Part shown: positions 352 to 27,080 of the stretch, one piece after another | Numbering within the stretch: position 1 is the first letter of the stretch | Layout: the number at the start of each line of letters is the position of its first letter | Assembly: GCA_965228485.1 (NCBI GenBank) | Contig: OZ245819.1 | Location: forward strand, 360,001 to 392,000 | DNA: 32,000 bases | Source of the DNA: Candidatus Saccharimonadota bacterium | GTDB lineage: Bacteria; Patescibacteriota; Gracilibacteria; UBA4473 | Direction of reading: 5' to 3' | The notes under the pieces: generated by a model | The model's database searches: none | What the model saw: only the letters and a program-made list of their open reading frames with translations | What the model was told of the DNA's origin: nothing | Translations under genes and position numbers: made by a program

Positions 352-357
352 ATTTTT

Positions 358-2547: not shown

Positions 2548-2570
2548 GAGCACAAAGTAACAAAAAAAAT

Positions 2571-2685: not shown

Positions 2686-2695
2686 CTCAAGTAAG

Positions 2696-2721: not shown

Positions 2722-2738
2722 GTAGATCAACACAAAAT

Positions 2739-7722: not shown

Positions 7723-8105
7723 TGGCAGAAATATTAGGATTGTTTAATAAGCCAATTGAGGCCAAAAAACTTTTAGAATTACACCCAAATGATCAAGAGA
7801 ATGTTTCTAAAGGCCTTACTCTTTTAGAAAGGCTCTCTGACGTTACTCAAATCCCAGAACTGAATACGGCGGATCAACAAGCGCTCTTCACCCTAGCGGC
7901 TATTGATGCTCGTGTAGGAGGTGGCATCATAGATACTCAACAAGCTCGTACTATATCATTTTTATTAAAGGATATTATTACTCCTGACATTGTGGCTCGT
8001 GCTATCATTAAAAGCTATGAACACCATGGATTGATAGGAGTCGGAGTTCTCCCTGAAGCAGAAATAATTGAAGGTTCAGTAAATACTTCCAAAAGCCTAA
8101 ATTAA
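7722..8105 (+). CDS. hypothetical protein (127 aa), translationally coupled to tkt
   Basis: The ATG overlaps the tkt stop (TAATG at 7720-7724). The protein is soluble and I recognise no motif. Coding status rests on ORF length and the coupling. Confidence 0.5.
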   Translation: MAEILGLFNKPIEAKKLLELHPNDQENVSKGLTLLERLSDVTQIPELNTADQQALFTLAAIDARVGGGIIDTQQARTISFLLKDIITPDIVARAIIKSYEHHGLIGVGVLPEAEIIEGSVNTSKSLN

Positions 8106-8166
8106 AAAGTTTATAAAAAGTTTTTCATTTATGATAGACTTCGGATCAAAGAACTATCAGATGTAA

Positions 8167-9354: not shown

Positions 9355-11151
9355 ATCTGCTAAGGAAGACTCTGATTTTTCTAAAACAGCTGCTGCCTGG
9401 TCCCATTCTGCATAAGCGACTATAAGTTTTTCGTGAATACGCTGATACTCAATTCCCAAATCCTCCATTTTTAGGCGGGCTCCCTGTCTTTCGGCGACTT
9501 TAAATTTTTCTTTATTCTCGGTAAGATCGTCTTCTATCTTTGCAATACGTTTTTCGATTTCATCGACAATTTTTTTATTGCGTCGACGGTCCTTTTCCAG
9601 TTGTTTTTTTTGCAATTTTAGATCATTGGTCACAACTCGCTTCTTCGGCTCACCTACAGATTCCTCAGCTTCATCTTGCCATCCTTTTTCTCTCAGAAAA
9701 TCATCATAACTTCCCTGAAAACCAAAAGGATAATCTCCCTCAAAAACAATAAATTTATTAGCGACCTGCCTCAAAACATCTTCATTATGAGAAACAAAGA
9801 CAATCCCTCCACTAAAATTTTTCATAGCTTGTATAAGGGCTTCAACGGACTCTAAGTCCAAATGGTTTGTTGGTTCATCTAAAAGTAATAAATGCCTTGG
9901 TTGAAGCATAACTTTCCCCAAAGCGACTCTATTTTTCTCCCCTCCAGAAAGAACTTCTATTTTTTTATACACCTCTCCTCCCCGAAACATAAGACTTCCA
10001 CACAATGCTCGTATAGAGGTTTCTGGCATATCTTTTACCGATTCTTGAAGCGTCTCTAGAATTGTCTTTTGAGATTCTAAGACTTTCTCATTAGATTGAT
10101 TGAAAATTACTTTTTGTAGATCAGGATGACACTTCAAACTCCCCGCTCTTAAAGATAAATCTTCTGATAGGCATTTTAGTAACGTCGATTTCCCTTTCCC
10201 ATTTTTTCCAATAATTGCCACCTTATCTCCAGGCTCAACTCGAAGATCAACTTTCGAAAATAAATCTTTTGTATCATAACCAAAGGTTAAATTTGTTCCT
10301 TGTATCATTCGATCACTATGAAACTCTAGAGCTTCAAATCTAAATTTTATTTGAGCGATAGCTTCTAATTTTTCTTTCTTCTCACGCTTTTCTAGAGCTT
10401 TAATTCGTGACTGCACAAGCCCCGCACTCCGAGCCCCAGCTCTAAATTCTCTAATAAATTTTTCTGTCTTCTGAGCCTTTTTTTCATCATTAAGCCGAGT
10501 CCTTTCATGAATCTCTTCCTCCTGTGAAATTTGTCTATAAATCTTACTCGTTGATCCCTCTAATTTCTTAATTCCTTGACGATGAATAGCCATTGTATGC
10601 GTCGTCACACTATCCATGAAATTTCTATCATGGGTAACCAGTAATAACTCCCCCTGCCATTCATTGAGGAAACGGGATAGCCAACGAAGTGAAACAATAT
10701 CAAGGTAATTTGTCGGCTCATCAAGCAATAATAAATCAGGCTCTCCTAAAAGTGTTTTAGCCAATTGAATCCTTATTTGATATCCCCCAGAAAAATCCTC
10801 TGGGGCTTTTTTTAGGTCTTCATTTTTGAATCCCAATCCATGCAACATTTTTTCAGCTCTCCAGAGATCGTGCTTTTGATGCTCCCGAAGCCCCAAAGCC
10901 GCTTCTTCTACAATATTGGGCCGAGTAAAGTTGAGATGTTGTTCCAAATACCCCACAACATAGTGCTCGGGCTTCATTATTTCTCCTTCGTCTGGAGCAT
11001 CTTTCCCGAGAATTATATTCAGTAGAGTCGTTTTCCCATGACCATTTCTTCCAACAAGACCTACTCGTTCCCCTGCATTAATATGAAAGGTAACTTCGTC
11101 CAGAAGTACTTGGCTCCCAAAAGACTTAGTCACAGATTTACACTGAATCAT
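9340..11151 (-). CDS. ABC-F family ATPase (two ABC cassettes, no TM domain; EttA/Uup-like)
   Basis: Walker A 'GRNGHGKTT' and 'GKNGKGKST'. Signatures 'FSGGYQIR' and 'LSGGEKNR'. Walker B 'LLLLDEPTN' occurs twice. The C-terminal tail is Lys/Glu-rich and coiled-coil-like. Confidence 0.9.
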   Translation of the reverse strand: MIQCKSVTKSFGSQVLLDEVTFHINAGERVGLVGRNGHGKTTLLNIILGKDAPDEGEIMKPEHYVVGYLEQHLNFTRPNIVEEAALGLREHQKHDLWRAEKMLHGLGFKNEDLKKAPEDFSGGYQIRIQLAKTLLGEPDLLLLDEPTNYLDIVSLRWLSRFLNEWQGELLLVTHDRNFMDSVTTHTMAIHRQGIKKLEGSTSKIYRQISQEEEIHERTRLNDEKKAQKTEKFIREFRAGARSAGLVQSRIKALEKREKKEKLEAIAQIKFRFEALEFHSDRMIQGTNLTFGYDTKDLFSKVDLRVEPGDKVAIIGKNGKGKSTLLKCLSEDLSLRAGSLKCHPDLQKVIFNQSNEKVLESQKTILETLQESVKDMPETSIRALCGSLMFRGGEVYKKIEVLSGGEKNRVALGKVMLQPRHLLLLDEPTNHLDLESVEALIQAMKNFSGGIVFVSHNEDVLRQVANKFIVFEGDYPFGFQGSYDDFLREKGWQDEAEESVGEPKKRVVTNDLKLQKKQLEKDRRRNKKIVDEIEKRIAKIEDDLTENKEKFKVAERQGARLKMEDLGIEYQRIHEKLIVAYAEWDQAAAVLEKSESSLADLLES

Positions 11152-11206
11152 CAGATAAATTTATAACTAAATTTTTTCTAAATTAAACTAAATTACTCAA
11201 AGAAGA

Positions 11207-11956
11207 TTAATTTTCTCCACCACAATACCACTCTGGATCATGGACTCTTATAGCCCAAGCTCCTGAATCAGCTGAAATTTTACCAGCCGCTATATTGGGT
11301 TTGCTTTCGAAGCGATTTTCTCCTAAAAATCGTTTTTTAGAGTGTCCAATAAGAACTTTAAAATCTGGTACTAAAGCCGCAAATCCCAAAAGTTTTTCAT
11401 TAAGTTCCTGAGTTTTTCCAAAGCCGATTCCCGGATCTAGAACAATATTTTTAGGGCTAATACCATATAAAATCATCTTTTCAGCTTTAAACATCAAATC
11501 ATCCATCACCTTTGTTTCTGAATCAATCGATTGACGGTGGACTTCCTCGATAGTCTTTCCTGGAAAGTGATTTACAATACAAAGAGCATCAAATTCTGCC
11601 GCAAGCTCCAGCATCATAGGATCCTGAAAACCTGAAACGTCATTAATAATCATCCCTCCAAGTTCTAAATATTTCTGAACCGTATAAGGATTCTTACTAT
11701 CAAGAGAAATTTCTCCTGGGAAAGTCTCCAAAAGATGTTCTAAAACCTCCCCTACCCTTCCCCACTCTTCTTCAGGGGTAATCGCTTTAGCTCCAGGTCT
11801 CGTAGACTCTCCTCCAACATCCACATAAGTGGCCCCATTATCAAACAAAATCTGAGCCCTTTCAATCGCCGTTTTTGGTGTCAAAAACATTCCTCCGTCT
11901 GAGAAACTATCAGGCGTAATGTTCAAAATGCCAAAAATTTCGACTGGCGTTTTCAC
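11207..11956 (-). CDS. folP: dihydropteroate synthase
   Basis: 'GILNITPDSFSDGG' and 'VDVGGESTRPGA' are DHPS pterin-binding motifs. GTG start at 11956. Confidence 0.9.
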   Translation of the reverse strand: MKTPVEIFGILNITPDSFSDGGMFLTPKTAIERAQILFDNGATYVDVGGESTRPGAKAITPEEEWGRVGEVLEHLLETFPGEISLDSKNPYTVQKYLELGGMIINDVSGFQDPMMLELAAEFDALCIVNHFPGKTIEEVHRQSIDSETKVMDDLMFKAEKMILYGISPKNIVLDPGIGFGKTQELNEKLLGFAALVPDFKVLIGHSKKRFLGENRFESKPNIAAGKISADSGAWAIRVHDPEWYCGGEN

Positions 11957-11991
11957 ATCAAGACACTAAGATAATCTGGAATCAAAATCAA

Positions 11992-12255
11992 ATGAATCAC
12001 ATTGAGATTATCGGTTATATTGCGACAGCGCTAATCATGGTAGCGTTTCTTCCTCAAGCCTGGCAAGTATGGCGAACAAAATCTGTAGAAGACATCTCTC
12101 TGCCTACCTACGCCATCCTTATCTGTGGAGCGGTAGCTTGGACAACCTATGGTTACCTACGCGGAGACAATCCAATTATTTTGACAAATGTTGTACTCTT
12201 TGTAGTACAAGGATCAATTGTATACTGTAAACTTAAATACGGGAAAGCGTCATGA
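11992..12255 (+). CDS. SemiSWEET / PQ-loop 3-TM sugar transporter (87 aa)
   Basis: Three TM helices with the PQ motif 'FLPQAWQVWRTKS' after TM1. Size and topology fit bacterial SemiSWEETs. The stop overlaps the tmk start (ATGA). Confidence 0.75.
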   Translation: MNHIEIIGYIATALIMVAFLPQAWQVWRTKSVEDISLPTYAILICGAVAWTTYGYLRGDNPIILTNVVLFVVQGSIVYCKLKYGKAS

Positions 12256-12917
12256 AAGCACCGATTATCGTACTTGAAGGATTAGATGCTTGTGGTAAAT
12301 CTACCCAGACTGAGTTACTAATGGACAACCTTGCTAAAAAGGGACTTCAGGCAGGATGGAAAAGGTTTCCAGGGTATGAAGAAACTACCGCAGGAAAAAG
12401 AATCGCCGCTTACCTAAGAGGAGAGCTTGGTGACTTTCATCAAATTGATCCTAAAATGATTGCGAGCCTTTATGCCGCTGATCGACTGGCACAGATTGAA
12501 TCAGTTGAAAAACTACGAGATGAAAATGAAGTAGTTATTTTTGATCGAGGTGTAACCTCAAACCTGATCTATACACCAGCCAGAGGCAAGAACATTGGTG
12601 AAACAGAAGCTCTCGCAGAATATGTTGAAAAACTAGAATATGATGTGTTTGGTTTTCCACGAGAAAGCTTAGTAATTTTTCTTGAAGCCTCTCGAGAAGC
12701 GCGTGAAAAAATCCATGCTGCAAAAGGACGAACCACGGACCTCCATGAATCGGATGACGAATACTTACAAAAAGTTCGTGAAGTAGCTTTAGAAAGATGT
12801 GAAAAAGATTTCAGATGGCAAAAAATTAACGTTGATGCTTCTGGGGAACTTCGACGCAGAGATGAAATTGGAGAAGAAATTCTGAGTTTAGTCTTGGAAA
12901 AATTACAGAAAAAATAG
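12252..12917 (+). CDS. tmk: thymidylate kinase
   Basis: P-loop 'IVLEGLDACGKSTQ', then 'YAADR' (DR motif region). Length of 221 aa is typical. Confidence 0.85.
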   Translation: MKAPIIVLEGLDACGKSTQTELLMDNLAKKGLQAGWKRFPGYEETTAGKRIAAYLRGELGDFHQIDPKMIASLYAADRLAQIESVEKLRDENEVVIFDRGVTSNLIYTPARGKNIGETEALAEYVEKLEYDVFGFPRESLVIFLEASREAREKIHAAKGRTTDLHESDDEYLQKVREVALERCEKDFRWQKINVDASGELRRRDEIGEEILSLVLEKLQKK

Positions 12918-12928
12918 AATATAAAGCT

Positions 12929-13429
12929 ATGCTGAATCACATAGCTGAATTTTTCGGACTCAAAGAAGATGCCTGGATAAAACATTCCAACCCATGGAGT
13001 GTTTGGACGAGAGTTATTACTCTGCCATTTTTGACTATTGCCATTTGGAGTCACATATGGATTGGATATTGGGCGCTTGTTCCCATTCTTATTTGTGTAG
13101 TTTGGATAAAAATTAATCCTGTTTTTTTCTCAAAACCCAAAAGCACTAAAAATTGGTCTTCAAAATCAGTTCTTGGAGAAAGAGTTTGGCTTAACAAAAA
13201 AACACATCCCATTCCTAATCATCACCAACGTTTCGCTGTTATATTAAGCATCATTGCTTTTATAGGATTAATTATTTGGGGCTATGGACTTTATAGCAAA
13301 AACCTTGAATTCACGATTATGGGTCTAATTCTTATCTATACAGGAAAAATGTGGTTTCTTGATCGGATGGTTTGGCTTTTTGAAGATATGAAAAAACAGA
13401 TTCCTGAATATCAAAAATGGGAGTATTAA
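12929..13429 (+). CDS. conserved-looking integral membrane protein, function unknown (166 aa)
   Basis: Four hydrophobic segments and Trp-rich motifs ('NPWSVWTRV', 'GKMWFLDRMVWL'). No secure family assignment. Confidence 0.55.
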   Translation: MLNHIAEFFGLKEDAWIKHSNPWSVWTRVITLPFLTIAIWSHIWIGYWALVPILICVVWIKINPVFFSKPKSTKNWSSKSVLGERVWLNKKTHPIPNHHQRFAVILSIIAFIGLIIWGYGLYSKNLEFTIMGLILIYTGKMWFLDRMVWLFEDMKKQIPEYQKWEY

Positions 13430-13783
13430 TTCCAGAATTCTTCTGTCGCCCCTTTCCAATGGATGTAATAAGGGATGTTTTTTTCTCGTGCCACAATAGC
13501 ACTATGAGACATTACCCCCCCCTTGTTCTAAAACGATTCCTGAAAATTTATCCATTTCCAATATACAACTATTTTCAAAATAAGGGGCGACAAGGACACA
13601 GCCTTCTGAGAAAATTCCACGGAAAGATTCAACGGTATTCAGTTCCACGGATGTGAACCCATTAGCTCTTCGGTAGTTTTTGAGGTTCATTGAAAGTTCC
13701 TCTAACAAATTTCGTTTCCAGATTCTTAAAGCCACATCTTCTTCCACTTGAAAAATGGTTTCGACATCCCATAACTCTCCCAC
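13426..13783 (-). pseudogene. frameshifted stand-alone PEP-utilising-enzyme mobile (phosphohistidine swivel) domain
   Basis: Tracked ORF 13783->13502 ends '...FSGIVLEQGGGNVS*'. The adjacent frame continues 13509->13426 as 'SHSAIVAREKNIPYYIHWKGATEEFWN*'. Skipping one base at ~13507 yields 'GGGNVHSAIVARE', which fits the PEP-utiliser phosphorylation-site pattern G-[GA]-x-[TN]-x-H-[STA]-[STAV]-[LIVM](2)-[STAV]-[RG]. No ATP-grasp or PEP-binding domains flank it. Confidence 0.7.
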
Positions 13784-13952
13784 AAGATGCTATTTCTCTT
13801 CAATGGGTTGCTGGTATTCATTCAAAAAGATCAAACTTCCCATACAAAAATTGAAAGCCTAAATAAACTATCTCAAACCAAATCATTTACTTTACTATAA
13901 AGCAAAACCCACTAAAGTCATGACGATTTTTATTGATTAATATTTCAATACT

Positions 13953-14804
13953 ATGAGTGCTCAAATAATTTCTGGAAAAGACATCGCTGAAAAAATCTTA
14001 GAAAAAGAACTTGTTCCTCGAGTTCAAGAATTGAACAAAAAAAATGTTCAACCAAAATTAGTGGTTATCCTTATTGGAGAACACCCAGCTTCGGCTAGTT
14101 ATGTTCGACAAAAAGAAAAATTTGCAGAGAAAGCTGGAATTATTGCTGAAACTTGGAGATACGAAGATTCTGTAAGTGAAGCTGAAATCCTCAGTGAAAT
14201 TGAAAAGATCAATCAGGATGAAGATATTCACGGAGTTATCGTTCAACTTCCTGTGCCTGACCACATCTCTGTGGAAAAAATTCTACGAGCGATCGATCCC
14301 TCTAAAGATGTCGATGGTTTTACTCCTGAAAATGTTGGTAAACTTTTCTTAGGAGAGCCTTGTTTGGAGTGTTGTACTCCCAAAGGCGTTATCCGAATGA
14401 TTGAGGAATCTGGAGAAGAATTAAGCGGAAAACATGTAGTCGTTATTGGACGATCAAACATTGTTGGGAAGCCTGTATCCGTTTTAGCACTGAATAAAAA
14501 TGCTACTGTAACTATTTGTCATTCTCGAACAAAAAATCTTGATGAACAAATTGCTAAAGCCGATATCTTGATTGTTGCGGTTGGACGACCCGAGATGATC
14601 CATGGCGATCAAATCCCAGAAGGATGTACCGTTATTGATGTTGGAATTCATCGAAAAGATGAAGGTGGTTTGTGCGGAGACGTTCACTTTAAAAGTGCTA
14701 AAGAAAAAGCGAGAGCTATTTCTCCAGTACCTGGTGGAGTCGGTCCAATGACGGTTTTCTGTCTTATCGAAAACACTATCGAGGCGGCTGAAAAACTGAG
14801 CTAA
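13953..14804 (+). CDS. folD: bifunctional methylenetetrahydrofolate dehydrogenase / methenyl-THF cyclohydrolase
   Basis: 'PASASYVRQKEK', 'HGVIVQLPVP', 'GRSNIVGKPV' and 'SPVPGGVGPMT' are the canonical FolD motifs. 283 aa. Confidence 0.93.
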   Translation: MSAQIISGKDIAEKILEKELVPRVQELNKKNVQPKLVVILIGEHPASASYVRQKEKFAEKAGIIAETWRYEDSVSEAEILSEIEKINQDEDIHGVIVQLPVPDHISVEKILRAIDPSKDVDGFTPENVGKLFLGEPCLECCTPKGVIRMIEESGEELSGKHVVVIGRSNIVGKPVSVLALNKNATVTICHSRTKNLDEQIAKADILIVAVGRPEMIHGDQIPEGCTVIDVGIHRKDEGGLCGDVHFKSAKEKARAISPVPGGVGPMTVFCLIENTIEAAEKLS

Positions 14805-14851
14805 AAAAATAAATACAAACACTCATTTATTAAAATCATAAATATCATTAC

Positions 14852-15619
14852 ATGAGTGAAAATTTCGAATTAAATATCTCTGAACGAGAAGGACATCCTT
14901 GCTTGTACCTTCATGGACTTGGAAGTCCTGACCCTATTTCTCCTGAAGTAGAATCTGCTATTTCTCACCTTGGATACGCCGTATCTAACCAGTGGAGAAA
15001 TGATCAAGAAGTCTTAAACAGTACCAACCCAGCCGAATTGTTACAGACAGAAATAGCTCAAGCTATTGATAGTATTGCTCAAAGCTCTGGTGAAAAAGTT
15101 ACAGTCGTAGGAAATAGCCTGGGAAGCTACTTAGCACTCCTCGGAGCCGCGAAAGTAGCGAAACATATTCGTGGTATTTTAGGAACTGATGCGTTCCTAA
15201 CCCCGAACCATGGGTTTCAACAAATGAGAGATATGACGATATCTATGGCAGATGATATTAAAGAAGCTATAGCCGAAGACCATGGGATACTTTCACCATT
15301 TGACGAACTGCCTGAAAGACTAAAAGAAGCTCAAAAAAACAGTGCATATCCAGTACCACTGGTTAATGATCGATGGATTACACTCCCAGATGACCTTGCT
15401 AGTAAATTTAGACCAATAAACGAAATATCAGGCATAAAAAAAATCAAATCTCCAATTCATTTGATATGGGGAAAAGAAGATCCTTTTGTTATTAAATCTC
15501 CAATAGAATTAATCCCTGGAGATGTATCTGGTCTAGAACTTTCTGATTGTAATCACAATGAATGGAAAGAAAATGATAGAGCTAAAACCTCGGCTTTGGA
15601 ATTCCTATCAACGCTTTAG
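14852..15619 (+). CDS. alpha/beta-fold hydrolase, substrate unknown
   Basis: 'LYLHGLGS' and the nucleophile elbow 'VVGNSLGSYLAL' (G-x-S-x-G). The C-terminal 'DCNHNEW' could supply the catalytic His. Confidence 0.65.
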   Translation: MSENFELNISEREGHPCLYLHGLGSPDPISPEVESAISHLGYAVSNQWRNDQEVLNSTNPAELLQTEIAQAIDSIAQSSGEKVTVVGNSLGSYLALLGAAKVAKHIRGILGTDAFLTPNHGFQQMRDMTISMADDIKEAIAEDHGILSPFDELPERLKEAQKNSAYPVPLVNDRWITLPDDLASKFRPINEISGIKKIKSPIHLIWGKEDPFVIKSPIELIPGDVSGLELSDCNHNEWKENDRAKTSALEFLSTL

Positions 15620-16434
15620 TGATCATCAGGACGAACTCCTAGAGGATTTCCGCAATTCTTACAGAATTTAGCGTCGAAGTCATGACGTGGAAAATGGCAG
15701 TAATAACAAACATGATTTCTCTTTCCAAAAAAATGATCAATAAACATCTTGGTAATAATGGCCGTAAAGATAGCGATTACGCCAAGCCCCATGAACATCA
15801 TAATGGCTGCTAAGGCTTTCCCAGGGAAAGTCACTGGAACAATATCCCCATACCCCACTGTTGAAATCGTCACAAATGCCCACCAGATGGCATCCGGGAG
15901 TGATTGAATTTCAGGGTTCACATCTCGCTCTAAATAATATAGTCCACTCGCGGATAAAATCAGAGACACAATGAGGGTAAGGGCGAAGATCTTAAATTCG
16001 TTGTAGTAATTTCTAAATGATTTAAAGAAATCAACCAGTACTTCTGAATAACGAAAGATTTTGAGAAGCTGTAAAATTTTTAATACTCTAAAACTCCGTA
16101 GGAATGTAAAGTTTGTAACCGAAAGATAAAACGTCAGAATCACAAACAGGTCGATTAATGCCAAAGGAGAAAGCACATAACGCCCTTTCCTTGGCGAAAG
16201 ATAAAAACGAATTAGATATTCAATGGCAAATATTGATACCACAAACATATCAAACTGATGAAAGTAGTGTTCGTATTTATGCCCGATCTCCGTCGTTTCA
16301 AAAATAAACATCCCAATTGACATGATGATCAATGTTACGAGGAAAAATCCTATGCGTCTCCCCCACTTTGATTCATGATTCTCAAAAGCCTCTTCTAACC
16401 AGACTCTAACAGATGATTCTTTTGCAAAACTCAT
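15616..16434 (-). CDS. 6-TM voltage-gated-type K+ channel with C-terminal zinc ribbon
   Basis: Selectivity filter 'TVGYGD' at nt 15844-15861. S4-like helix 'FLRSFRVLKILQLLKIFRY' has basic residues every third position. The cytosolic tail 'CYYC-x11-CKNC' (nt 15652-15708) is a CxxC...CxxC zinc ribbon. Confidence 0.85.
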   Translation of the reverse strand: MSFAKESSVRVWLEEAFENHESKWGRRIGFFLVTLIIMSIGMFIFETTEIGHKYEHYFHQFDMFVVSIFAIEYLIRFYLSPRKGRYVLSPLALIDLFVILTFYLSVTNFTFLRSFRVLKILQLLKIFRYSEVLVDFFKSFRNYYNEFKIFALTLIVSLILSASGLYYLERDVNPEIQSLPDAIWWAFVTISTVGYGDIVPVTFPGKALAAIMMFMGLGVIAIFTAIITKMFIDHFFGKRNHVCYYCHFPRHDFDAKFCKNCGNPLGVRPDDH

Positions 16435-16469
16435 TATTCAAATTCTAGTATAAAATTAAAAAATTGTCA

Positions 16470-16848
16470 CTAATCATACTCCACCCAAAAGGTCGCTACG
16501 TACTCTGTCCAAGCTCTAACTTTCGTCACTGTTCGCACATTTAAAACATCTGTTACCAACAAATGATTCTGAACAAGTAGCCAGTGTAGCCATTCCAACT
16601 GTTGTAGGCATATTAAAAATACAAGTGGTCACTACATTATTTTTATGAAGAACAATCGGTAGAGAGGTTACAATTGTCCCAGTAGACATACCACCGATTC
16701 TTCTTGCTGTACCACTATATCCCATTTGTATTCCATAAAGTAGTTCTACCCTTACCAAAGGCCATATACTCATTTGAATTCACGATCCCTCTTTCGCTCG
16801 TAAAAGCTCCGTGAGTACCGTAAATATCAGATATATTTTTATATACAA
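16470..16848 (-). pseudogene. start-less, twice-frameshifted duplicate of the C-terminal tip domain of the upstream fibre protein
   Basis: Three minus-strand frames read in succession reproduce the last ~115 aa of the 886-aa protein. Frame A (16828->16718) reads 'DIYGTHGAFTSERGIVNSNEYMAFGKGRTTLWNTNGI*', compare 'GPYGIFWAERGTVVSNASWSLGNGQTPWGSPMG'. Frame B is the tracked ORF 16773->16516, '..MGYSGTARRIGG..MPTTVGMATLATC..', compare 'MGCSGTIRRLAA..IPTTVGGVANTSC..'. Frame C (16523->16470) reads 'KVRAWTEYVATFWVEYD*', compare 'ETGAWTECVGTFWVKYD*'. Frame A has no start codon and no signal peptide. Confidence 0.75.
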
Positions 16849-19509
16849 CTAGTCATATTTCACCCAAAAAGTTCCGACACATTCGGTCCAAGCTCCCGTT
16901 TCTGTTTGAGAATAAACCCCGACTACATCATTGGCTCCAAACGCTACATTACAAGAAGTATTCGCCACACCTCCGACCGTTGTTGGAATACTCACATTAC
17001 AGGCTGTAGAAATATCATTAATTCTTACTTCGGCTCCCAAAGAAGTCCCTATTGCACCCGTACACGTTGCCGCAAGCCTTCTAATTGTCCCCGAACATCC
17101 CATAGGGCTTCCCCATGGCGTTTGTCCATTCCCAAGAGACCAAGAAGCATTCGAAACCACGGTCCCTCGCTCTGCCCAGAAAATCCCATACGGGCCACAC
17201 TCACTCTCAATATCAGAACCAAAAGTTGAGAAATTTCCGGCTGAATCATCCCATCCTAATTGTCGGTCTGTCCCATCATCAAACGTAATAAACGAATCAG
17301 TCGCTGTCCCATCACCAATTTCAATTACTTGACCCGTTTCGTTAATATCAAGATTATCTGAGATATCAAACTCAGCGTTAGTATTGTCCCAGGTAATAGT
17401 CTCGTTATTGGTGGTTCCATAGCGCAGACTTACGTCTCCGCCCGTATTATCATCATCTAGTGTAAAAGTTTCAGCAGAAGTCCCCGCTCCAACCGAACCT
17501 GGATCCCCCTTAGAGGCCATAAGCTCCCAGTAAGTCCCGTCACTTGGATTTTGGCTTGCGGTCGTATCAAGGATACAAACATAGGTCGAACCCTGATAGC
17601 TCACCGCTTGATTCGTGGTATAATTCTGTGAAACCCAAGCTCCTTCCCAAGTTATATCTCCATCTGCCCCTGCTGATCCAGTAGCCCCCGTCGGTCCCGC
17701 TGGTCCTTGAGGCGCTTTCAATTGCACTACCGATAGTGAAGATTGACCACTAATCATATTGGCTACTCCAGCTGTGGTATTTTCTCGATCCACTAATACT
17801 TCAAAGTAGTCATTGGCATTCAAATCTAGAACGGTAGAAAAAACCAAAGAAGTTTCCGTTTGTCCAGAAGTCATCCGAATGTAACCTGGCTGAAACCTCA
17901 TTGGCAAAACCGTCACGCCGTTAACTCTAAACTTCACTCGACCGTTATAACGGAAATTATTGGTCACTGCATTTTCTACTGACACGGCTCCACTGACATG
18001 ATACTTCCCATCGGCTAAAACCTGAACTCGGCTGTTGTTGATCACTGTATCATGGGTAAAAGCCGCCGCATCTTCAAAATCTTCAGTGTCCCACGGAACT
18101 ATATTATCTGTTGCTGCCGCATTTAGGTCGGTCGTAGAAGTATCTCGATAACGCGCAGCTAACATATCTCCAAGAGTTGCCGTATTCGCATCAATTTGCA
18201 CCCACCCACTCCCGTCACAAACATAGGTAAAGGTATCGACCGTATTGTGGTACATCCGCCCGCTAGCCGCTCCATCACACGTAGGAGCTACCGTTCTATT
18301 TTCAATTCGAGCATCAACTAGCTCATTCGCATTCAGGCTTAAATCATCACTCACTTCAAACTGAGAATTTGACGAATTCCAGGCAAACGTCTCATTAAGG
18401 GTTTCTCCGAACTGAACGGTCAAATCCCCTCCTGTGTCATCACTATCAAGCGTGACGGTATTTCCTGTCTGGAGAATCTCACCGGTTACTTCCAGATCAT
18501 CACTCAGGTTAAATCGGGCATTAAGACTATCCCAGGTCAAACTTTCATTAAGGGTTTGACCAAAAATCAAACTTAGAGCCCCTCCTGTATCATCGTTATC
18601 AATCGTAAAAGTTTCATCATCAATCGTTGGTCCGCTGCTCCCAGGGTCTCCTTTTTCCCCTTTAATTCCTTCTAGCTTAATAATAGAAAAATAAATCTCG
18701 TCCTGAGTTGCATCAGTCGTTGCATCACGCTGAAGCTGAAGAGAGATGAAATCCCCATCACTCAAATTTGCCAAGAACGAAGCTGAAGTAGTAGAAAACT
18801 CTCCTTGGTAATTTTTATTCACGGACGCAGAACCCGGTAAAACCGTCGTATCATTTACTCGTACTCGAGCTCGAGCCTCATGAGTTCCAGTAGCGGTCCC
18901 TCCAGCGGTATAACCGTAAATAATCTGATACATAGCCGTCGCCCCAATATCAATCCGATCTCGAAACGTGTCATCATGATCCAGTGTTGTTGTATCATTT
19001 TCTAGATCCGTCGTATCCAGGTCAATGTCCGCGTAAGACGTAGTCAACGTATATGAAGTGGTTCGTCTTGCCTGCACAACTGGAAACTCAATGGTTGCGT
19101 TCAGGGCATTCTCCAAAGGATTCCAAGTCCCTGCCCCATCACAAGTATAGGTCAAAACATCCAAAGTATTGAAGTAAATTTTCCCAGCCGCTGCGGCATC
19201 ACACGTTGGGGCTGTACTGAGATTTTCTATTCTTAAATTCTGTAATTCGTTCCCTGAGAAATCTGTATCACGATTAATCTGGAAATTATCTCCAACGACG
19301 TCATATCGCATCTTAGCATCAACTGTACTTCCAAACTCAAGATCAATAAAATCGTCTGACGTGTCTCCAGAATCTATGTAAAAAGTTTGGCTGTGAACTC
19401 CATTTTCTTCGGTTGAAAAAATCACTCCTGCATACCCTTGTAAAGGCACAATTCCCCCTAGGAATAAACTTAATAATTTTGTGGTTAAACTCCTCTTCCC
19501 AAAAAGCAT
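16849..19509 (-). CDS. secreted fibre/adhesin-like mosaic protein with collagen-like G-X-Y runs (886 aa)
   Basis: N-terminal signal-like 'MLFGKRSLTTKLLSLFLGGIVPLQGYAG'. Four copies of a 'TF[TY][IL]DxDDTGGxLxLxFGxTLNExxxWxxxxxxFxxSDDL' module (aa ~42, 300, 351, 681). Two copies of a Cys-pair module 'RIENxxxAPTCDxAAxGxxYxNTxDxxTYxCDGxGxW' (aa ~92-129 and 401-437). Two ~110-aa beta-rich domains, each ending in a G-X-Y run. CBM5/12-like 'WVSQNYTTNQAVSYQGSTYVCILDTTASQNPSDGTYWEL'. Cys-rich C-terminal domain (aa ~769-886). Confidence 0.8.
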   Translation of the reverse strand: MLFGKRSLTTKLLSLFLGGIVPLQGYAGVIFSTEENGVHSQTFYIDSGDTSDDFIDLEFGSTVDAKMRYDVVGDNFQINRDTDFSGNELQNLRIENLSTAPTCDAAAAGKIYFNTLDVLTYTCDGAGTWNPLENALNATIEFPVVQARRTTSYTLTTSYADIDLDTTDLENDTTTLDHDDTFRDRIDIGATAMYQIIYGYTAGGTATGTHEARARVRVNDTTVLPGSASVNKNYQGEFSTTSASFLANLSDGDFISLQLQRDATTDATQDEIYFSIIKLEGIKGEKGDPGSSGPTIDDETFTIDNDDTGGALSLIFGQTLNESLTWDSLNARFNLSDDLEVTGEILQTGNTVTLDSDDTGGDLTVQFGETLNETFAWNSSNSQFEVSDDLSLNANELVDARIENRTVAPTCDGAASGRMYHNTVDTFTYVCDGSGWVQIDANTATLGDMLAARYRDTSTTDLNAAATDNIVPWDTEDFEDAAAFTHDTVINNSRVQVLADGKYHVSGAVSVENAVTNNFRYNGRVKFRVNGVTVLPMRFQPGYIRMTSGQTETSLVFSTVLDLNANDYFEVLVDRENTTAGVANMISGQSSLSVVQLKAPQGPAGPTGATGSAGADGDITWEGAWVSQNYTTNQAVSYQGSTYVCILDTTASQNPSDGTYWELMASKGDPGSVGAGTSAETFTLDDDNTGGDVSLRYGTTNNETITWDNTNAEFDISDNLDINETGQVIEIGDGTATDSFITFDDGTDRQLGWDDSAGNFSTFGSDIESECGPYGIFWAERGTVVSNASWSLGNGQTPWGSPMGCSGTIRRLAATCTGAIGTSLGAEVRINDISTACNVSIPTTVGGVANTSCNVAFGANDVVGVYSQTETGAWTECVGTFWVKYD
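17482..17508 (-). repeat. collagen-like G-X-Y run 3 (GDP GSV GAG)
   Basis: Three Gly-X-Y triplets, aa 668-676. Confidence 0.6.
17656..17706 (-). repeat. collagen-like G-X-Y run 2 (GPA GPT GAT GSA GAD GD)
   Basis: Five to six uninterrupted Gly-X-Y triplets, aa 602-618, directly upstream of the CBM5/12-like motif. Confidence 0.8.
18625..18669 (-). repeat. collagen-like G-X-Y run 1 (GIK GEK GDP GSS GPT)
   Basis: Five uninterrupted Gly-X-Y triplets, aa 281-295 of the fibre protein. Confidence 0.8.
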
Positions 19510-19643: not shown

Positions 19644-20408
19644 ATGTTAAAAATTAAAAATCTCAAAGCCACTTTATCTGAGGAAGATTTATCAATCCTC
19701 AAAGGCATAGATTTAGAAGTAAATCCTGGAGAAATTCACGTTATTCTTGGACCAAATGGTTCTGGAAAATCGACTCTAGGACGCGCAATTTTGGGAGATG
19801 AAAGATACGAAATAACCGATGGAAGCATCGAGTTTGATGGACAAGACTTTGGAGAACTAGAGCCAAGCGAGCGAGCACAAGCCGGATTTTTTCTTACTTT
19901 TCAATCTCCGCCAGAAATTGATGGAGTGAGGGTAAAGGAGTTTTTATTCGCAGCTAAAAAGTCTTTTGATGAGGATTTCACTTCAAGCTTTAAACTTAAA
20001 AAAGAACTACAAAAAAACTTTAACGACCTTCGACTTCCAGAAGAATTTATCGACCGTGAAGCAAACCTCGGATTTTCTGGAGGAGAAAGAAAAAAAATGG
20101 AAGTTGCCTCACTGCTCACCCTTCAACCAAAACTCGCATTCTTGGATGAAATCGATTCAGGGGTAGATATTGATACTATCAGAAGCATTGGCACTTCTCT
20201 TAGAGCTTTCATGGAAGACAAAACGCGATCGATTGTACTCGTTTCACATTCAGATAAACTCTTTCAAGAAGTAGAAGCGACACATGTACATATCTTTTAT
20301 CAGGGAAAAATTGTAAAATCTGGAGGGAAGGAGCTTATCGATGAAATTCAAACAGAAGGATTTGATAGTCACATTAAAGCTCACAACCCTCTAAAAGTTC
20401 TCCAATAA
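19644..20408 (+). CDS. sufC: Fe-S cluster assembly ATPase SufC
   Basis: 'GPNGSGKSTLGRAILGDERYEITDGSIEFDGQD', 'GFFLTFQSPPEIDGV', 'LGFSGGERKKMEV' and 'LAFLDEIDSGVDID' form the SufC-specific ABC pattern. Confidence 0.9.
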   Translation: MLKIKNLKATLSEEDLSILKGIDLEVNPGEIHVILGPNGSGKSTLGRAILGDERYEITDGSIEFDGQDFGELEPSERAQAGFFLTFQSPPEIDGVRVKEFLFAAKKSFDEDFTSSFKLKKELQKNFNDLRLPEEFIDREANLGFSGGERKKMEVASLLTLQPKLAFLDEIDSGVDIDTIRSIGTSLRAFMEDKTRSIVLVSHSDKLFQEVEATHVHIFYQGKIVKSGGKELIDEIQTEGFDSHIKAHNPLKVLQ

Positions 20409-20410
20409 CA

Positions 20411-21778
20411 ATGTTTAAAAAAATTTTCATCACTCTCTGTTTCATTTTCAGCATTGGAAATATTGCTCAAGCAGCAAATCCGGTATCTGACATTGTCGAG
20501 AGTGCAACTGATCCAAAGAACTATTTTATTTTTGGACAAATCCAGAGCTACTATGATGTCATTGATGAACTCAATAGTAAGAAAGTAGAACTCGAGGTTC
20601 TTGAACAAAGTCGAAGTGTGCAAGAAAAATCTATTACAAAGCTAAAAGAAGAAATCCGATCTCTTGGAGCTGAAACGGTTTCACTTTCTGATCAAATTGA
20701 AGCCCTAAACATACAAGAAGAAATATCTCCTTCAGACAAATTGCGGCTAGAAAACCTAAATGCGGAATTAAACGACACACAAACGGTTCTCGATGATCAA
20801 AAAAAGAAACTCATAGCACTAGAAAATGAACTTTCAGGAAGTTTCACAGAAGCTCAAACGGAAAAAACTATTTTACTACAAAATGAAATTTTTCAGCTAG
20901 AAGAAGACCTTGCTACCAGCCAAATTCGTTTAAAAAACTACGTCGAGGATTACATTAAAAAAATAGTTCTGGCGATTGCTATATGGATTGTGGCATCAGT
21001 ACTCAAATGGATTATTACTAAGATTTTTAATCGAATTAATTTTTCAGTTACTGCTCAACGAAAAGCCTTTATTCTTCAACTTATAAAGATCACGATAAAT
21101 ACGGTCGCTATTATTGCGATTTTGCTGGTGTTCTTCTCCCAACTCATTAGAGCTCTCCCCTACTTTGCTATCTTTGCAACCGTTATCACCCTCGCCCTAA
21201 AAGATGTTATCTTATCAGTTATTGCTTGGATTATTATTGGAACTAAAGATGGCTACAAAGTTGGACATTACCTTCATATTGGAGATTTATGGGGAACCGT
21301 TGTAGAGATCAATCCCTTCAACACCATCGTAAGACAGGGCGGAATATCTGGTCCGACCGGTCGACTCCTTACCTTCCCAAACAAAAAGATTTTTGAAGAG
21401 TTCTTAGAAAATTGGTCTAAATGGCACAACTTCACTTACCTCAAGTGGGACTTCTTTTTAGAAGCTGATAGTAATTTTGATAAAGCCGAAAAAATTATGC
21501 TTAAAATTATGGGAGAAGCCCAAAAAGAGTACAAAGAAAAGATGCTTCAAAAGAAAAATCAGCTGCTTAAGCTAGGGATTCGTGAAGAAAATTTAGACCC
21601 AATGGTTTTCTGGGAAACTCAAGCCAATGGTCTGCTTTTGAGAGGCAAGCTGATTGTAGATTTTGATCTTTTTTTTGAGATCAGAACCAGAGTAACTCGC
21701 GATTTTATAAAGGCGATTCAAAAAGAACCCGATATAAAACTCAGATTTGTGAATAATTTAGTGTCTAACTCATTGTAA
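20411..21778 (+). CDS. MscS-family mechanosensitive channel with N-terminal signal peptide and ~150-aa coiled coil (455 aa)
   Basis: Signal 'MFKKIFITLCFIFSIGNIAQA'. A heptad-rich region spans aa ~50-180, followed by three or four TM helices. MscS beta-domain 'YKVGHYLHIGDLWGTVVEINPFNTIVRQ...LLTFPNKKIF'. The start lies 2 nt after the sufC stop. Confidence 0.75.
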   Translation: MFKKIFITLCFIFSIGNIAQAANPVSDIVESATDPKNYFIFGQIQSYYDVIDELNSKKVELEVLEQSRSVQEKSITKLKEEIRSLGAETVSLSDQIEALNIQEEISPSDKLRLENLNAELNDTQTVLDDQKKKLIALENELSGSFTEAQTEKTILLQNEIFQLEEDLATSQIRLKNYVEDYIKKIVLAIAIWIVASVLKWIITKIFNRINFSVTAQRKAFILQLIKITINTVAIIAILLVFFSQLIRALPYFAIFATVITLALKDVILSVIAWIIIGTKDGYKVGHYLHIGDLWGTVVEINPFNTIVRQGGISGPTGRLLTFPNKKIFEEFLENWSKWHNFTYLKWDFFLEADSNFDKAEKIMLKIMGEAQKEYKEKMLQKKNQLLKLGIREENLDPMVFWETQANGLLLRGKLIVDFDLFFEIRTRVTRDFIKAIQKEPDIKLRFVNNLVSNSL

Positions 21779-21797
21779 AAAATTATCCCAGACCGCA

Positions 21798-23771
21798 TTA
21801 ATAAGAATTCAACCTTAATTCAATACCCTCATCACCATCCCATCCATAAATGACTTGTGCTAAGATGGCATAGTGATCTTTTTTTGAAGCAGGCTGAAGC
21901 TTAGGAAAACCAAATATAGTAGCGATAGAGCTTAGCCCCTTCCCATAAAATTTTAGTTTCTTCTTTTCTTGCTGTGTTAATTGCATCCAACTTTCCAGCG
22001 TGGGATATTGTTCTTTTATTATCTCCCTCCACTTCTCCAAGCCCCAAAGTTCACAGTCAATTATATCATGCCCCTCTCCATATATAGCTCTTCCGATTTT
22101 AGCCCAGCCAGGCCTAGCTGAATTTATTTTTTCTTCCACCCCTAAAAGAGAAGCAAGGGTTACGAACCCTTTTCCATAAAAATTTAACTGACTCTTATCT
22201 TTCGGCGTTAATGCCATCCAAATTTCAGGGGTTGGATATCTTTCTTTTATTGTCTTTCTCCACTTATCTCTATCCCAAAATTCACAATTAATAACGTCAT
22301 GATTTTTTCCATAAATACCCTGTCCCAATAGAGCGTGATCTTGTTTCCTACCAATAGGATTTCCCTCAACATTTCCAAAAATCGTAGCTATAACTCTTAA
22401 TCCTCTTCCATAAAATTCCAATGTATTTCTTTGTGCAACCGTTAACTGCATCCAACTTTCTGGTGTTGGGTACTTTTCTTTTATGACATCTTTCCACTTA
22501 TCCTTACCCCAAAACTCACACTCAACTATCTCATGCCCCTCTCCATAAATTTTTTGTGCTAATCGGGCACAATCTAAAAGGTTGTTATGCGGTAGCCCTC
22601 CCGACCCCAAAATACCAGCTATAGCCGTCAAACCTTTGCCCTGAAATTTTAGAACTAGTTTTTCATCTGCACTTAGACTTATCAACTCTTCAGGCGTTGG
22701 GTATGCTTTTTTTATTTCTGTCCCCCATCTTTCCCCACTCCAGAATTCACATTCAATTATGTCATGCCCCTCACCATAAATTTTTCTCCCTAAGTCGGCT
22801 TGTGCAGAACGAACCGAAAGCACATCTCCAGACGCTCCCAAAATGGTAGCAATAGCCCTAATGCCTCGACCATAAACTTTTACAAACTTTTTTTCCTTTG
22901 CGGTTAATCCCATCCAATGTTCTGGTTTTGGGAATTCAGATTTTATTTCATTGATAAACAAAGTCTGTTCTGCTGATTTTTCAGAGTTAACAAAACTGTG
23001 CCTTCGGTCTTCAATATCTCTTGAGAGAGCTTCTACTATCTCAGTTCGCCAGTGATCAATGCTGTTATATTTTATTCTTTTACTCACAAAATTTGACTGA
23101 ATTTGTTTTTTATCAAATTCTTTAGCGACGTTCAAAGAAACTAGCTCCTTACATACAAAAGTTGCTTGTCCATATGCTTCACACAATAAAACGCTTCGTC
23201 CGATGGTTGGTAAATGAACTAGAATATAACTTTCTTCTCTCCTCATTTCTGATGAATTTGTGCCCTCAATGGCAAAAATTTGATCGGTATAGATGCCTAA
23301 GTCTCTTAAGACCAAAATTAACTGGGGTAGAAGTTTACCAGTTCTTTCCCTTTTTTCTTGATTTTTATCACACGCTTCAGTTCTTTGGGAGGCTATCGCT
23401 TGTGGCGGTAAGATTGTTTCTTCTATTTTTGTGTGTGGAATGCCTAGTTCATTAAATAAATCTTCTTCTTCTGATTTCTGGAGAACCTCATCTAAACGCC
23501 GTATAACACTTTCCAAATAAACATCTATACTTTCGGCTTTCTCAGACAAAAGTAGCTGAAGAATTCGTTTAACGACCTTATCTCGCTGTTCCACAAAATA
23601 ATCGTCTAGAGACTTTGTATTTTCTTTTTGTTTTTTTACACAAATTTGTTCAACAGCCTCCTCTATTTCAATCAAAACTCTTAAAATAGCTTCAGATCCT
23701 GGTTTTGTTTCCAACAAGACTTGAAATTCTTCAAAATTCTTTACAATACTTGAGCTCAGTGATTCACTCAT
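21798..23771 (-). CDS. orphan repeat protein: ~280-aa N-terminal region plus five ~77-aa tandem repeats (657 aa)
   Basis: Long uninterrupted ORF with ATG at 23771. Repeats start at aa 281, 358, 435, 513 and 590, with conserved 'PTPExWMxLT...FYG[KR]G[LIF]xxIA...IYGEGH[DE][IV][IV]xCEFWxxx[KR]WxxxIKExY'. I recognise no family. Confidence 0.8.
   Translation of the reverse strand: MSESLSSSIVKNFEEFQVLLETKPGSEAILRVLIEIEEAVEQICVKKQKENTKSLDDYFVEQRDKVVKRILQLLLSEKAESIDVYLESVIRRLDEVLQKSEEEDLFNELGIPHTKIEETILPPQAIASQRTEACDKNQEKRERTGKLLPQLILVLRDLGIYTDQIFAIEGTNSSEMRREESYILVHLPTIGRSVLLCEAYGQATFVCKELVSLNVAKEFDKKQIQSNFVSKRIKYNSIDHWRTEIVEALSRDIEDRRHSFVNSEKSAEQTLFINEIKSEFPKPEHWMGLTAKEKKFVKVYGRGIRAIATILGASGDVLSVRSAQADLGRKIYGEGHDIIECEFWSGERWGTEIKKAYPTPEELISLSADEKLVLKFQGKGLTAIAGILGSGGLPHNNLLDCARLAQKIYGEGHEIVECEFWGKDKWKDVIKEKYPTPESWMQLTVAQRNTLEFYGRGLRVIATIFGNVEGNPIGRKQDHALLGQGIYGKNHDVINCEFWDRDKWRKTIKERYPTPEIWMALTPKDKSQLNFYGKGFVTLASLLGVEEKINSARPGWAKIGRAIYGEGHDIIDCELWGLEKWREIIKEQYPTLESWMQLTQQEKKKLKFYGKGLSSIATIFGFPKLQPASKKDHYAILAQVIYGWDGDEGIELRLNSY
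21801..22931 (-). repeat. coding tandem repeat array, 5 units of ~231-234 nt (last unit truncated)
   Basis: The periodicity is visible in the translation and, more weakly, at nucleotide level. For example, the recurring ccataaaa(a)ttt...ccatccaa...cacttatc...aattcaca segments on the + strand at ~21945, ~22175, ~22410, ~22640 and ~22870 (positions estimated by eye). Confidence 0.8.
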
Positions 23772-23806
23772 TTTAATTAATTTAATATCAAATAAATTTT
23801 TGTCAA

Positions 23807-25216
23807 ATGTCAGATGTTCTTGATTTCACTTCTCTTGACCGTGACGACCTTGACCATGCTGATAGTCAAGATTACGTAAGCAAATACCAAAAAGGATTGT
23901 CTGAAGATTTAATCCGACTGATTTCAAAAGAAAAAAATGAACCTGATTGGGTTTTGGATATTCGGCTAAAAGCTTTTGCTGAATTCAAAAAACGAACTAC
24001 CCCTGCTTGGGGTCCAGACCTTTCAAATCTAGACTTAGACGAAATTGTATATTTTGCTTCTCCTGACGCTGAAAAAAATCAAAAATCATGGGATGATGTA
24101 CCTGATGAAATCAAAAGAACTTTTGAGCGGCTTAAAATCCCAGAAGCTGAACGAGCCGTTTTAGCCGGAGTTGGAGCACAGTATGACAGTGAGACCGTGT
24201 ACCATAATTTAAAAGATGAATGGACTGATCAGGGAGTTATTTTTGAGGACTTCGATGTTGCGATTCAAAAATACCCAGAACTAGTAAAAAAATATTTTAC
24301 CAAATGCATTCCAATCAATGATCATAAATTCTCAGCCCTTCATTATGCAATCTTTTCTGGCGGAACATTTCTCTATGTTCCAGAAGGGGTAGAAGTAACC
24401 CAACCACTACAGGCTTATTTTCGGATGAATGCCAAAAATGGAGGTCAATTTGAACACACTTTAATCGTTGTTGAAGATGGCGCTGACGCCGAATACATAG
24501 AAGGATGTTCCGCCCCAAAATTTGGAAGTAACTCTCTTCATGCAGGAGGTGTTGAACTCTTTGTTGGTAAAGGAGCTCGAGCTCGATACTCTTCTGTAGA
24601 AAACTGGTCTCAAGACACTTATAATCTCAACACAAAAAGAGCCCTGGTCCAAGAAAAAGGAAAGGTTGAATGGATCGGAGGAAATTTAGGTTCAGGGACA
24701 ACCATGCTATATCCTGCTTCTGTTCTTATGGGAGATTATTCCAAAGCTGATCACCTAGGGGTGGCCTTTGCCAATAAATACCAGAACCAAGATACAGGAG
24801 CAAAGATCACTATTCTTGGAAAGAATGCCCGAGCCTCTGTAGTTTCAAAAAGCCTCTCAAAAGGGGGGGGAATCTCAACTTACCGAGGTTTACTAGATAT
24901 CAAAAAAACTGCTGATAATGCTATTGTGACGGTTGAATGTGATGCCCTCATGCTCGATGACTTAGGGTCTGTAAGTGACACAATCCCACACATCAACTGC
25001 GAAAATGATTCTGCACAAGTGAATCATGAAGCCAGTGCTGGGAAAATTTCTGACGAAGTACTCCTCTACTTTGAATCTCGAGGAATTGATGAGGAGACTG
25101 CAAAAGGAATGATCGTTAATGGTTTCTTGGATGAAATTGTTAAAACGCTTCCCCTTGAATATGCTGGAGAACTCAATCGATTGATTGAACTGGAAATGGA
25201 AGGAAGTGTTGGATAG
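23807..25216 (+). CDS. sufB: Fe-S cluster assembly scaffold SufB
   Basis: 469 aa. 'HYAIFSGGTFLYVPEGVEV', 'HTLIVVEDGADAEYIEGC' and 'NHEASAGKISDEVLLYFESRGIDEETAKGMIVNGF' are typical SufB motifs. Confidence 0.92.
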   Translation: MSDVLDFTSLDRDDLDHADSQDYVSKYQKGLSEDLIRLISKEKNEPDWVLDIRLKAFAEFKKRTTPAWGPDLSNLDLDEIVYFASPDAEKNQKSWDDVPDEIKRTFERLKIPEAERAVLAGVGAQYDSETVYHNLKDEWTDQGVIFEDFDVAIQKYPELVKKYFTKCIPINDHKFSALHYAIFSGGTFLYVPEGVEVTQPLQAYFRMNAKNGGQFEHTLIVVEDGADAEYIEGCSAPKFGSNSLHAGGVELFVGKGARARYSSVENWSQDTYNLNTKRALVQEKGKVEWIGGNLGSGTTMLYPASVLMGDYSKADHLGVAFANKYQNQDTGAKITILGKNARASVVSKSLSKGGGISTYRGLLDIKKTADNAIVTVECDALMLDDLGSVSDTIPHINCENDSAQVNHEASAGKISDEVLLYFESRGIDEETAKGMIVNGFLDEIVKTLPLEYAGELNRLIELEMEGSVG

Positions 25217-25275
25217 AGAATTAAGCCTCAATTAATTTTAAGGCCTGTCTCTTCCAAAAATCACATCAATCTTAA

Positions 25276-25572: not shown

Positions 25573-25672
25573 CTTAATAAATTTTTAATACGGCAGGGTT
25601 TTATTTTTTCAGAGGAAAAGTGTCAAAAAAAATTGTTTGTTGATATAAATCCAGAGATATATTTCAAAATAC

Positions 25673-27006: not shown

Positions 27007-27080
27007 CTAAAAAATGCTACTTATGAATCAAAATTGATAAAGCTCTTTTCAAAACTTGAAAATTCAATACATTCTTTGTG

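Follow-up and report, generated by a model that had tools for sequence, protein, structure and literature searches.

Genes and features of the locus

The window, as the whole 32-kb stretch of DNA analysed here is called, has a GC content of 37.8%, and the standard bacterial code (table 11) fits its ORFs. Its housekeeping genes encode MraW, a transketolase, a FolP-like protein, thymidylate kinase, SufB, an ABC-F ATPase and MscS channels, and a FolD-like and a SufC-like ORF are named by eye only. An alternative code in which TGA is a sense codon was rejected: the table 11 ORFs are intact, and the two of 26 ORFs (at least 100 aa) that stop at TGA, both at the far end of the window, do so in a typical ATGA overlap, the rest ending in TAA or TAG. 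The subject of this analysis is a disrupted segment that directly follows a gene for a large surface fibre. The segment is referred to here as the stub, and it and the adjoining features share one strand:

16849..19509, minus strand: resident fibre gene, 886 aa, with a TAG stop (ORF list, Pfam and PHROGs matches)
16852..17202, minus strand: type-1 tip domain of the resident fibre (aa 770-886), its six cysteines conserved
16473..16843, minus strand: stub of a putative type-2 fibre gene, comprising a complete tip domain of about 118 codons and some 6 codons of the neck (tblastn, HMM)
16739-16843, 16552-16737 and 16473-16550, minus strand: the three reading-frame pieces of the stub
16736..16738, minus strand: first frameshift, a TTT run with one base too many compared with intact tips (+1)
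16550..16552, minus strand: second frameshift, an extra A at about 16551 in GGTAAC[A]GATG, +1 relative to intact tips
16470..16472, minus strand: TAG, putatively the original stop of the lost type-2 gene, inside a 48-nt stretch 77% identical to the resident 3' end
16442..16470, minus strand: sigma-70-like promoter match, GTGACA-17-TAGAAT, 10/12, a consensus match only
15616..16434, minus strand: ion-transport (K+-channel-like) gene, downstream of the stub on the strand shared with the fibre

A terminator scan predicted no intrinsic terminator between the fibre gene and the ion-channel gene, and the sole tRNA or Rfam match in the window, tRNA-Gly at 2611-2685, is distant from the stub. The candidate promoter overlaps the stop codon and end of the stub and points toward the ion-channel gene. 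Such a promoter-like element, if real, could be the reason why the 3' end of a dead gene escaped deletion.

Several other features of the window deserve mention in their own right. The suf genes are dispersed over window positions 19644-27608:

19644-20408: SufC-like ORF, named by eye, with an MscS-like gene next to it
21798-23771, opposite strand: 657-aa ORF with no Pfam match, after the MscS-like gene
23807-25216: SufB, followed by a 690-nt gap and then a DUF389 gene
27078-27608: short SufBD-core ORF of 176 aa, covering only the C-terminal two thirds of the profile

The protein encoded at window positions 8167-9354 has two S-layer-homology (SLH) domains as well as a thioredoxin-like one, and relatives of it occur in two related loci, L004 and L007. 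The first of these (JAACPJ010000002.1, MAG CG_2015-02_41_16) is syntenic over its positions 1-2394 with window positions 1-2580, a block that holds MraW, a small export protein and a Sua5/YrdC-like gene; the fibre arrays of the two are placed differently relative to this block. A 990-aa KAP-family P-loop NTPase that adjoins tRNA-Gly(TCC) in the window (2611-5711) is missing from the otherwise syntenic start of L004 and may therefore be an inserted or defence-related gene.

The resident fibre and the tip family

The resident fibre has a signal peptide, repeated 'DTGGD...FG..L.E.L.WD' modules, two BclA_C/C1q-like domains, short collagen GXY runs, a neck and the C-terminal type-1 tip. It contains a CBM5/12-like module as well, with a score under Pfam's cut-off. 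Homologues of the fibre carry precomputed matches to PF18573 (BclA_C), PF01391, PF00386 or PF00629, and the fibres of this family are probably the cells' attachment organelles. The resident fibre is a mosaic: the homologue P0016 matches 39% of its length at 71% identity and P0011 28% at 74%. P0006, a paralogue on the same contig, shows 67% identity over 42% of the fibre's length, carries a precomputed MAM match (PF00629) and has no match to the resident tip. Fibre residues 598-675, which comprise collagen and CBM5/12-like sequence, match the phage tail-fibre PHROG phrog_5073 (E=7e-17).

The tip domain has no Pfam match. Its family comprises 92 cluster representatives at 50% identity, and the domain is C-terminal in most of them, on bodies of about 120 to 2,815 aa. 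The resident tip shares 76-77% aa identity with the tips of L004 and of L001, a metagenome locus. Four genome records, labelled Candidatus Peribacteria, Candidatus Gracilibacteria, Patescibacteria group and "bacterium", carry the tip domain; the viral contigs scanned do not, and a phage origin of the tip thus receives no support from them. Going by the labels of the four records, the host is taken for a Peregrinibacteria-like CPR bacterium. The initial annotation had singled out the tip as the evolving part of the fibre, a view borne out by the shuffling of tips and bodies across the family.

An AlphaFold model of the tip, based on four sequences, is all-beta and of moderate confidence (pLDDT 63.7). 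Its best matches in the PDB are weak (TM 0.4-0.5, E about 3e-3) and comprise Cbln1, C1QL, EDA, ExsFA and the BclA-containing entry 3twi, which shows a spore glycoprotein of B. anthracis in complex with a variable lymphocyte receptor. As modelled, the tip may reasonably be taken for a C1q-like head that forms trimers, binds receptors and sits on a collagen-containing stalk. One of the conserved tip cysteines is not strictly essential: a type-1 tip of the metagenome contig L014 (JGI Ga0493796_04479798), carried by the upstream of the contig's two genes, has a serine in its place (PMGSAG).

A second tip domain in three reading frames

The initial annotation described the stub as a copy of the last ~115 aa of the fibre, lying right behind the TAG stop of the gene and recognisable only across three reading frames. 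A homologous tip domain is indeed present there. Searched with tblastn against window positions 16300-16900, the fibre yields collinear pieces in three frames, two of which (35% identity over 82 aa and 58% over 26 aa) reach a joint E of 2e-15 and the third an E of 0.005. The frameshift-aware comparison with the fibre C-terminus that had been proposed as a check thus returns significant similarity. A tip HMM built from 9 intact tips, with the stub left out, finds three collinear fragments (HMM positions 3-29, 21-92 and 89-117; E=2e-4, 1e-15 and 1e-5) that cover the whole domain. The domain is, however, not a copy of the resident tip, to which it is 44% identical at the aa level and 59% at the nt level.

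The frame changes lie at about 16738 and 16551, 20-35 nt away from where they had been placed (near 16715-16730 and 16516-16525); the earlier positions are the ends of spurious ORFs. The 85-aa and 42-aa ORFs listed within the stub are by-products of the broken frames, and the annotation of the segment should read pseudogene in place of these two ORFs. Dropping one base from the T-run in ACTACTTTATGG together with the extra A at about 16551 restores a continuous frame of 118 codons ending in ...WTEYVATFWVEYD-TAG, and the frame-corrected stub aligns to intact tips with just one gap of one residue. The same two +1 indels are seen when the stub is aligned to L014, an independent intact relative. 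The first indel sits in a run of three Ts; the second lies outside any homopolymer.

The 5' end of the stub is abrupt. Homology to its closest intact relative, P0012, begins at 16843, 5 nt past the stop of the resident fibre. Upstream of the domain, its frame contains no ATG, GTG or TTG, and no signal peptide appears after frame correction, in keeping with the lack of both reported initially. Readthrough or programmed frameshifting to a two-tip protein is implausible, since it would have to pass a TAG and a TGA and make two +1 shifts.

Two tip lineages

The stub and the resident tip belong to different lineages. They share 44-45% aa and 59% nt identity, and their longest exact run is 10 nt. 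Among 132 family proteins compared, the stub is closest to P0012, an intact fibre of 543 aa, with 60% aa identity over the full 118 residues; the runner-up reaches 49.6%. The tip of P0012 is itself only 46% identical to the resident tip, and at the nt level the stub and the P0012 tip, which is the second tip on L014, are 67.6% identical. P0012 differs from 22 other intact tips by six substitutions (W23M, Q29R, P31T, A47G, Y99R and G112A), and the stub has all six; these are read as shared derived characters. Since the substitutions specific to P0012 are common to the stub, the stub is assigned to a type-2 tip lineage and the resident tip to type 1. In a neighbour-joining tree the resident tip clusters with those of L001 and L004 (95.5% bootstrap), and the stub falls outside this clade. 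The neck tells the same story: that of the stub (YKNI--SDIYGTH) is homologous to that of P0012 (FENILGSDVCGTH), and the resident neck (FGSDIESECG) differs.

The nucleotide stretch that had been noted as shared at the 3' ends is real and spans 48 nt (16469-16516 versus 16848-16895) at 77% identity. The same 77% is found between the type-2 tip of L014 and the resident tip, and the similarity thus goes back to the conserved WTEC.GTFWV.YD motif. Among intact tips, only that of P0012 was found to be of type 2; it lies on a 2.3-kb metagenome contig of a different organism (67-78% nt identity). The stub and P0012 form a rare second tip lineage that may help studies of fibre receptor specificity.

Decay and relaxed constraint

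The stub breaks six of the 25 columns that are strictly invariant in 23 intact tips of both types (C4Y, N27K, C49S, G54V, E103K and C110Y), and the near-invariant C38 is broken as well. Intact tips break 0-1 of the invariant columns each, a count made for type-1 tips by leave-one-out. A constraint test without P0012, in which 15/40 invariant sites were lost, overstated the decay, several of these changes being lineage features common to intact P0012. The cysteine losses are of a different kind. The stub keeps two of six cysteines and P0012 keeps all six, which makes the losses a peculiarity of the stub; a single TGY -> TAY change accounts for each of three. In the numbering of the resident fibre, the three losses noticed initially (C805Y, C816S and C877Y) all hold, and a fourth, C771Y, joins them.

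Rates of change point the same way. Between the stub and its intact counterpart dN is 0.268, compared with 0.183 for the pair of type-1 tips from the same two sources; dS is saturated in all comparisons (pS 0.62-0.84), leaving dN/dS unusable. GC at the three codon positions of the stub is 0.42/0.49/0.29, and the second-position value of 0.49 is down from about 0.6 in intact tips. On the evidence of its sequence, the stub is decaying rather than maintained. The modest dN excess and the still-visible codon-position pattern suggest that inactivation is young compared with the split from the L014 lineage, an estimate that is rough and assumes orthology of both pairs.

Homology to an intact family, disabling lesions and relaxed constraint, three marks of a pseudogene that can be read from sequence, are all found in the stub. 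Of the readings offered by the initial annotation, a decaying tandem duplication of the tip comes closest: the decay is plain (5' truncation, two frameshifts, four of six cysteines lost and six of 25 invariant positions broken), but the duplicate origin falls, as the stub, 60% identical to P0012, is of a different tip lineage.

Origin of the stub

The segment is probably a non-functional, 5'-truncated pseudogene, the 3' remnant (about 124 codons) of a separate type-2 fibre gene that stood in tandem with the resident one. An arrangement of this kind exists intact on L014. At positions 2-2264 of that contig, a gene ending in a type-1 tip stops at TAA, and the P0012 gene, which is complete, starts 4 nt further on. 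The window has the order of L014 (type-1 tip and stop, then type-2 tip), but roughly 418 codons at the 5' end of the second gene are missing. Tandem placement is the rule in the family: another fibre paralogue lies directly after the tip-carrying gene in L001, L002, L003, L004 and L011-L013. L004 has five tandem fibre paralogues at 5862-15409, one of them with a tip domain.

The tip of the upstream gene on L014 is 68% identical to the resident tip, and its likeness to the resident fibre is confined to the tip and does not extend to the body. Because of this the two genes may be non-orthologous, and their adjacency to a type-2 gene may be a coincidence in a generally tandem family. The ancestral state would be an intact tandem pair as on L014, with loss by deletion; a tandem ancestor in the window's own lineage is something we infer, since a single intact type-2 tip is known elsewhere.

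In the proposed course of events, the resident fibre gene would once have had a tandem neighbour immediately downstream, a second fibre gene with a type-2 tip. One or more deletions would then have removed some 418 codons of this second gene, namely its body, signal peptide and start codon, leaving its tip, neck and stop codon stranded 5 nt past the resident TAG. The left breakpoint lies within 5 nt of the resident stop, a position for which the sole clue is a weak AT-rich microhomology (AAAATAT, close to both the start and the neck of P0012); it is compatible with a slippage-type deletion, and its complexity is too low to count as evidence. The stub would subsequently have drifted free of selection, acquiring two +1 frameshifts, four cysteine losses and further changes at invariant sites, and would have no role in tip switching.

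The stub might instead be the displaced original tip of the resident gene, which would once have ended in a type-2 tip before recombination or horizontal transfer inserted a type-1 3' portion with its stop codon. The stub has the same orientation as the resident gene, lacks a start and begins 5 nt past the resident stop, as a displaced tip would. Bodies and tips are shuffled in the family, with one tip found on bodies of 260-1076 aa, and the same-contig paralogue P0006 has a MAM match (PF00629) without any match to the resident tip. P0012 moreover aligns to the first ~360 aa of the resident fibre at 59% identity. This N-terminal similarity is unspecific, however, with P0016 (71%) and P0011 (74%) nearer to the resident body, and the N-terminal module types of the resident fibre (VIFSTEENGVH..FYIDSGDTS) and P0012 (ADDFV.E) differ, so that the resident gene is no P0012-type gene that gained another tail. 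Type-1 and type-2 tips end separate neighbouring genes on L014, and no junction homology speaks for a crossover. Given the differing N-terminal modules and the closer paralogues, a displaced tip is unlikely as the origin of the stub.

Sequencing or assembly errors might have been at work, two consensus indels having corrupted an intact small gene that encodes only a tip, as the initial annotation also considered. The first indel does sit in a run of three Ts, and databases contain a few short proteins that consist of a tip alone (P0082, P0096 and P0107). Yet the second indel is not in a homopolymer, and every other ORF of at least 100 aa in the window reads through normally, the other 26 window ORFs being intact. 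With both indels corrected, the segment still has no in-frame start and no signal peptide, and four conserved structural cysteines and other invariant residues remain changed. Of these short proteins, those open to inspection come from contigs of about 0.6-2 kb and are fragments. Such an artefact is thus very unlikely.

The proposal that the stub is a promoterless donor cassette, a silent reservoir that recombines into the expressed gene in the manner of pilS or of tail-fibre cassettes, is not supported. Its position, its orientation and its lack of a promoter and start codon are those of such a cassette, and over the last 48 nt of its 3' end it matches the expressed gene at 77% identity. For homologous recombination, identical stretches of at least some 20-30 bp are required. 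An overall nt identity of 59% with a longest exact run of 10 nt is below this grade, and the 77% at the 3' end, recurring between the type-2 tip of L014 and the resident tip, is that of a conserved motif. The stub also lacks an open, usable frame, each of its frames containing stops. With two frameshifts and four lost cysteines, a long conversion tract would do harm. Past exchange would have drawn the stub toward the resident tip, but their dN of 0.478 is matched by 0.497-0.513 between the intact type-2 tip and two tips of type 1; the stub is no nearer the resident tip than an intact type-2 tip is, and no exchange has taken place. A six-frame HMM scan found no second cassette or copy in the 32-kb window or in 13 related loci, so that the multiple tip cassettes that had been proposed as something to look for in relatives are absent from these. 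Donor function is extremely unlikely.

A role as the template repeat of a diversity-generating retroelement (DGR), the stub being a non-coding copy of the variable C-terminus for mutagenic retrohoming, can be set aside as having next to no probability: a non-coding copy of the C-terminal ~115 codons right behind a surface-protein gene is the classic TR/VR geometry and DGRs are common in CPR bacteria, but TR and VR are near-identical save at adenines, whereas here identity is 59% with mismatches spread over A (48), T (44), G (25) and C (23), and a Pfam scan of 21 window ORFs turned up no reverse-transcriptase domain. An invertible tail-fibre segment or shufflon was rejected as well: the stub has the same orientation as the fibre gene, no inverted repeats flank it, and no recombinase was found among the window ORFs scanned, the neighbouring genes included.

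As the remnant of a lost tandem gene, the stub has a modest value as a footprint of gene birth and death, in which two tip lineages would once have been present at the locus and one was lost. It marks rapid birth-and-death and domain shuffling in the surface-fibre arrays of CPR bacteria, and alone it is of little weight.

Other disrupted junctions in the family

Interruptions between body and tip are found in two related loci. In L001 (ENA ERZ27279858 k141_2611550, positions 100-200), an apparent 1-nt deletion in the neck (GAT GGG -CT GAC CGC versus GAT GGG ACA GAC CGA in the window) lies about 25 codons upstream of an intact type-1 tip. The deletion puts the tip out of frame with its body, making this a disrupted body-tip junction in addition to that of L003. 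In L003 (ENA ERZ27317844 k141_95897, positions 513-539), the fibre gene reads ...DGNLTVGN-TAG-CGPYGIFWAERG..., with an in-frame TAG one codon ahead of the first cysteine of an otherwise intact type-1 tip; homologues have E, D, Q, P, V or R at this position. This TAG could vary within the population, serve as an on/off switch or have inactivated the gene as a nonsense mutation. P0107 and P0062 are candidates for further orphan tips, on contigs of only about 0.6 kb.

Stranded tips might conceivably be a regular intermediate of fibre tip turnover in CPR bacteria, in which deletions and recombination between tandem paralogues continually give bodies new tips and turn the old ones into orphans that can be recaptured while intact, though this generalisation is quite improbable. 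If it were true, the system would parallel orphan CdiA-CT modules at the cell surface, with the stub as a late, expired stage, and the TAG of L003 and the frameshift of L001 would belong to this process or to on/off switching.

Comparison with known systems

The resident fibre resembles the exosporium filaments of Bacillus, the BclA and other collagen-like filaments with C1q heads. Shared features are an N-terminal signal or anchor, collagen GXY runs and BclA_C/C1q-like domains, and the weakly matching model of the tip would add a C-terminal beta-sandwich head. The tip of the fibre differs in belonging to a distinct cysteine-rich family that lacks a Pfam match.

The silent pilS loci of Neisseria are multiple and in frame, and the conserved nt blocks that they share with pilE drive gene conversion. 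Like them, the stub lacks a promoter, lies near the expressed gene and covers only the variable C-terminal region of a surface filament protein. None of their defining features (multiple copies, an open frame, conserved conversion blocks) is seen in the stub.

The orphan modules of CdiA-CT and Rhs-CT are a nearer parallel, and a history similar to that of a displaced tip has been proposed for them (Poole et al. 2011, as reviewed in PMC9086364). Like the stub, they lie downstream of a full-length gene on the same strand, lack an initiation codon and belong to a lineage foreign to the resident C-terminus. Orphan CTs are toxic when expressed, however, and they are intact, start at a demarcation motif (VENN or others) that allows re-fusion, and come with an immunity gene (PMC9086364). 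The stub, in contrast, is frameshifted and decayed, has no recombination-grade homology to the resident gene and has no partner gene, the next gene being the ion channel. No junction motif is shared with the resident gene either (stub neck YKNISDIYG versus FGSDIESECG), and the junction is devoid of nt homology.

The best fit is with the pseudogene remnants left by birth-and-death of tandem surface-protein genes. The stub is like these in its homology, 5' truncation, frameshifts and lost structural residues, and also in its raised non-synonymous divergence and its place inside a tandem paralogue array. Nothing essential differs. What sets this remnant apart is that it comprises exactly one domain plus its neck and lies in a streamlined CPR genome, where non-coding remnants are expected to be short-lived.
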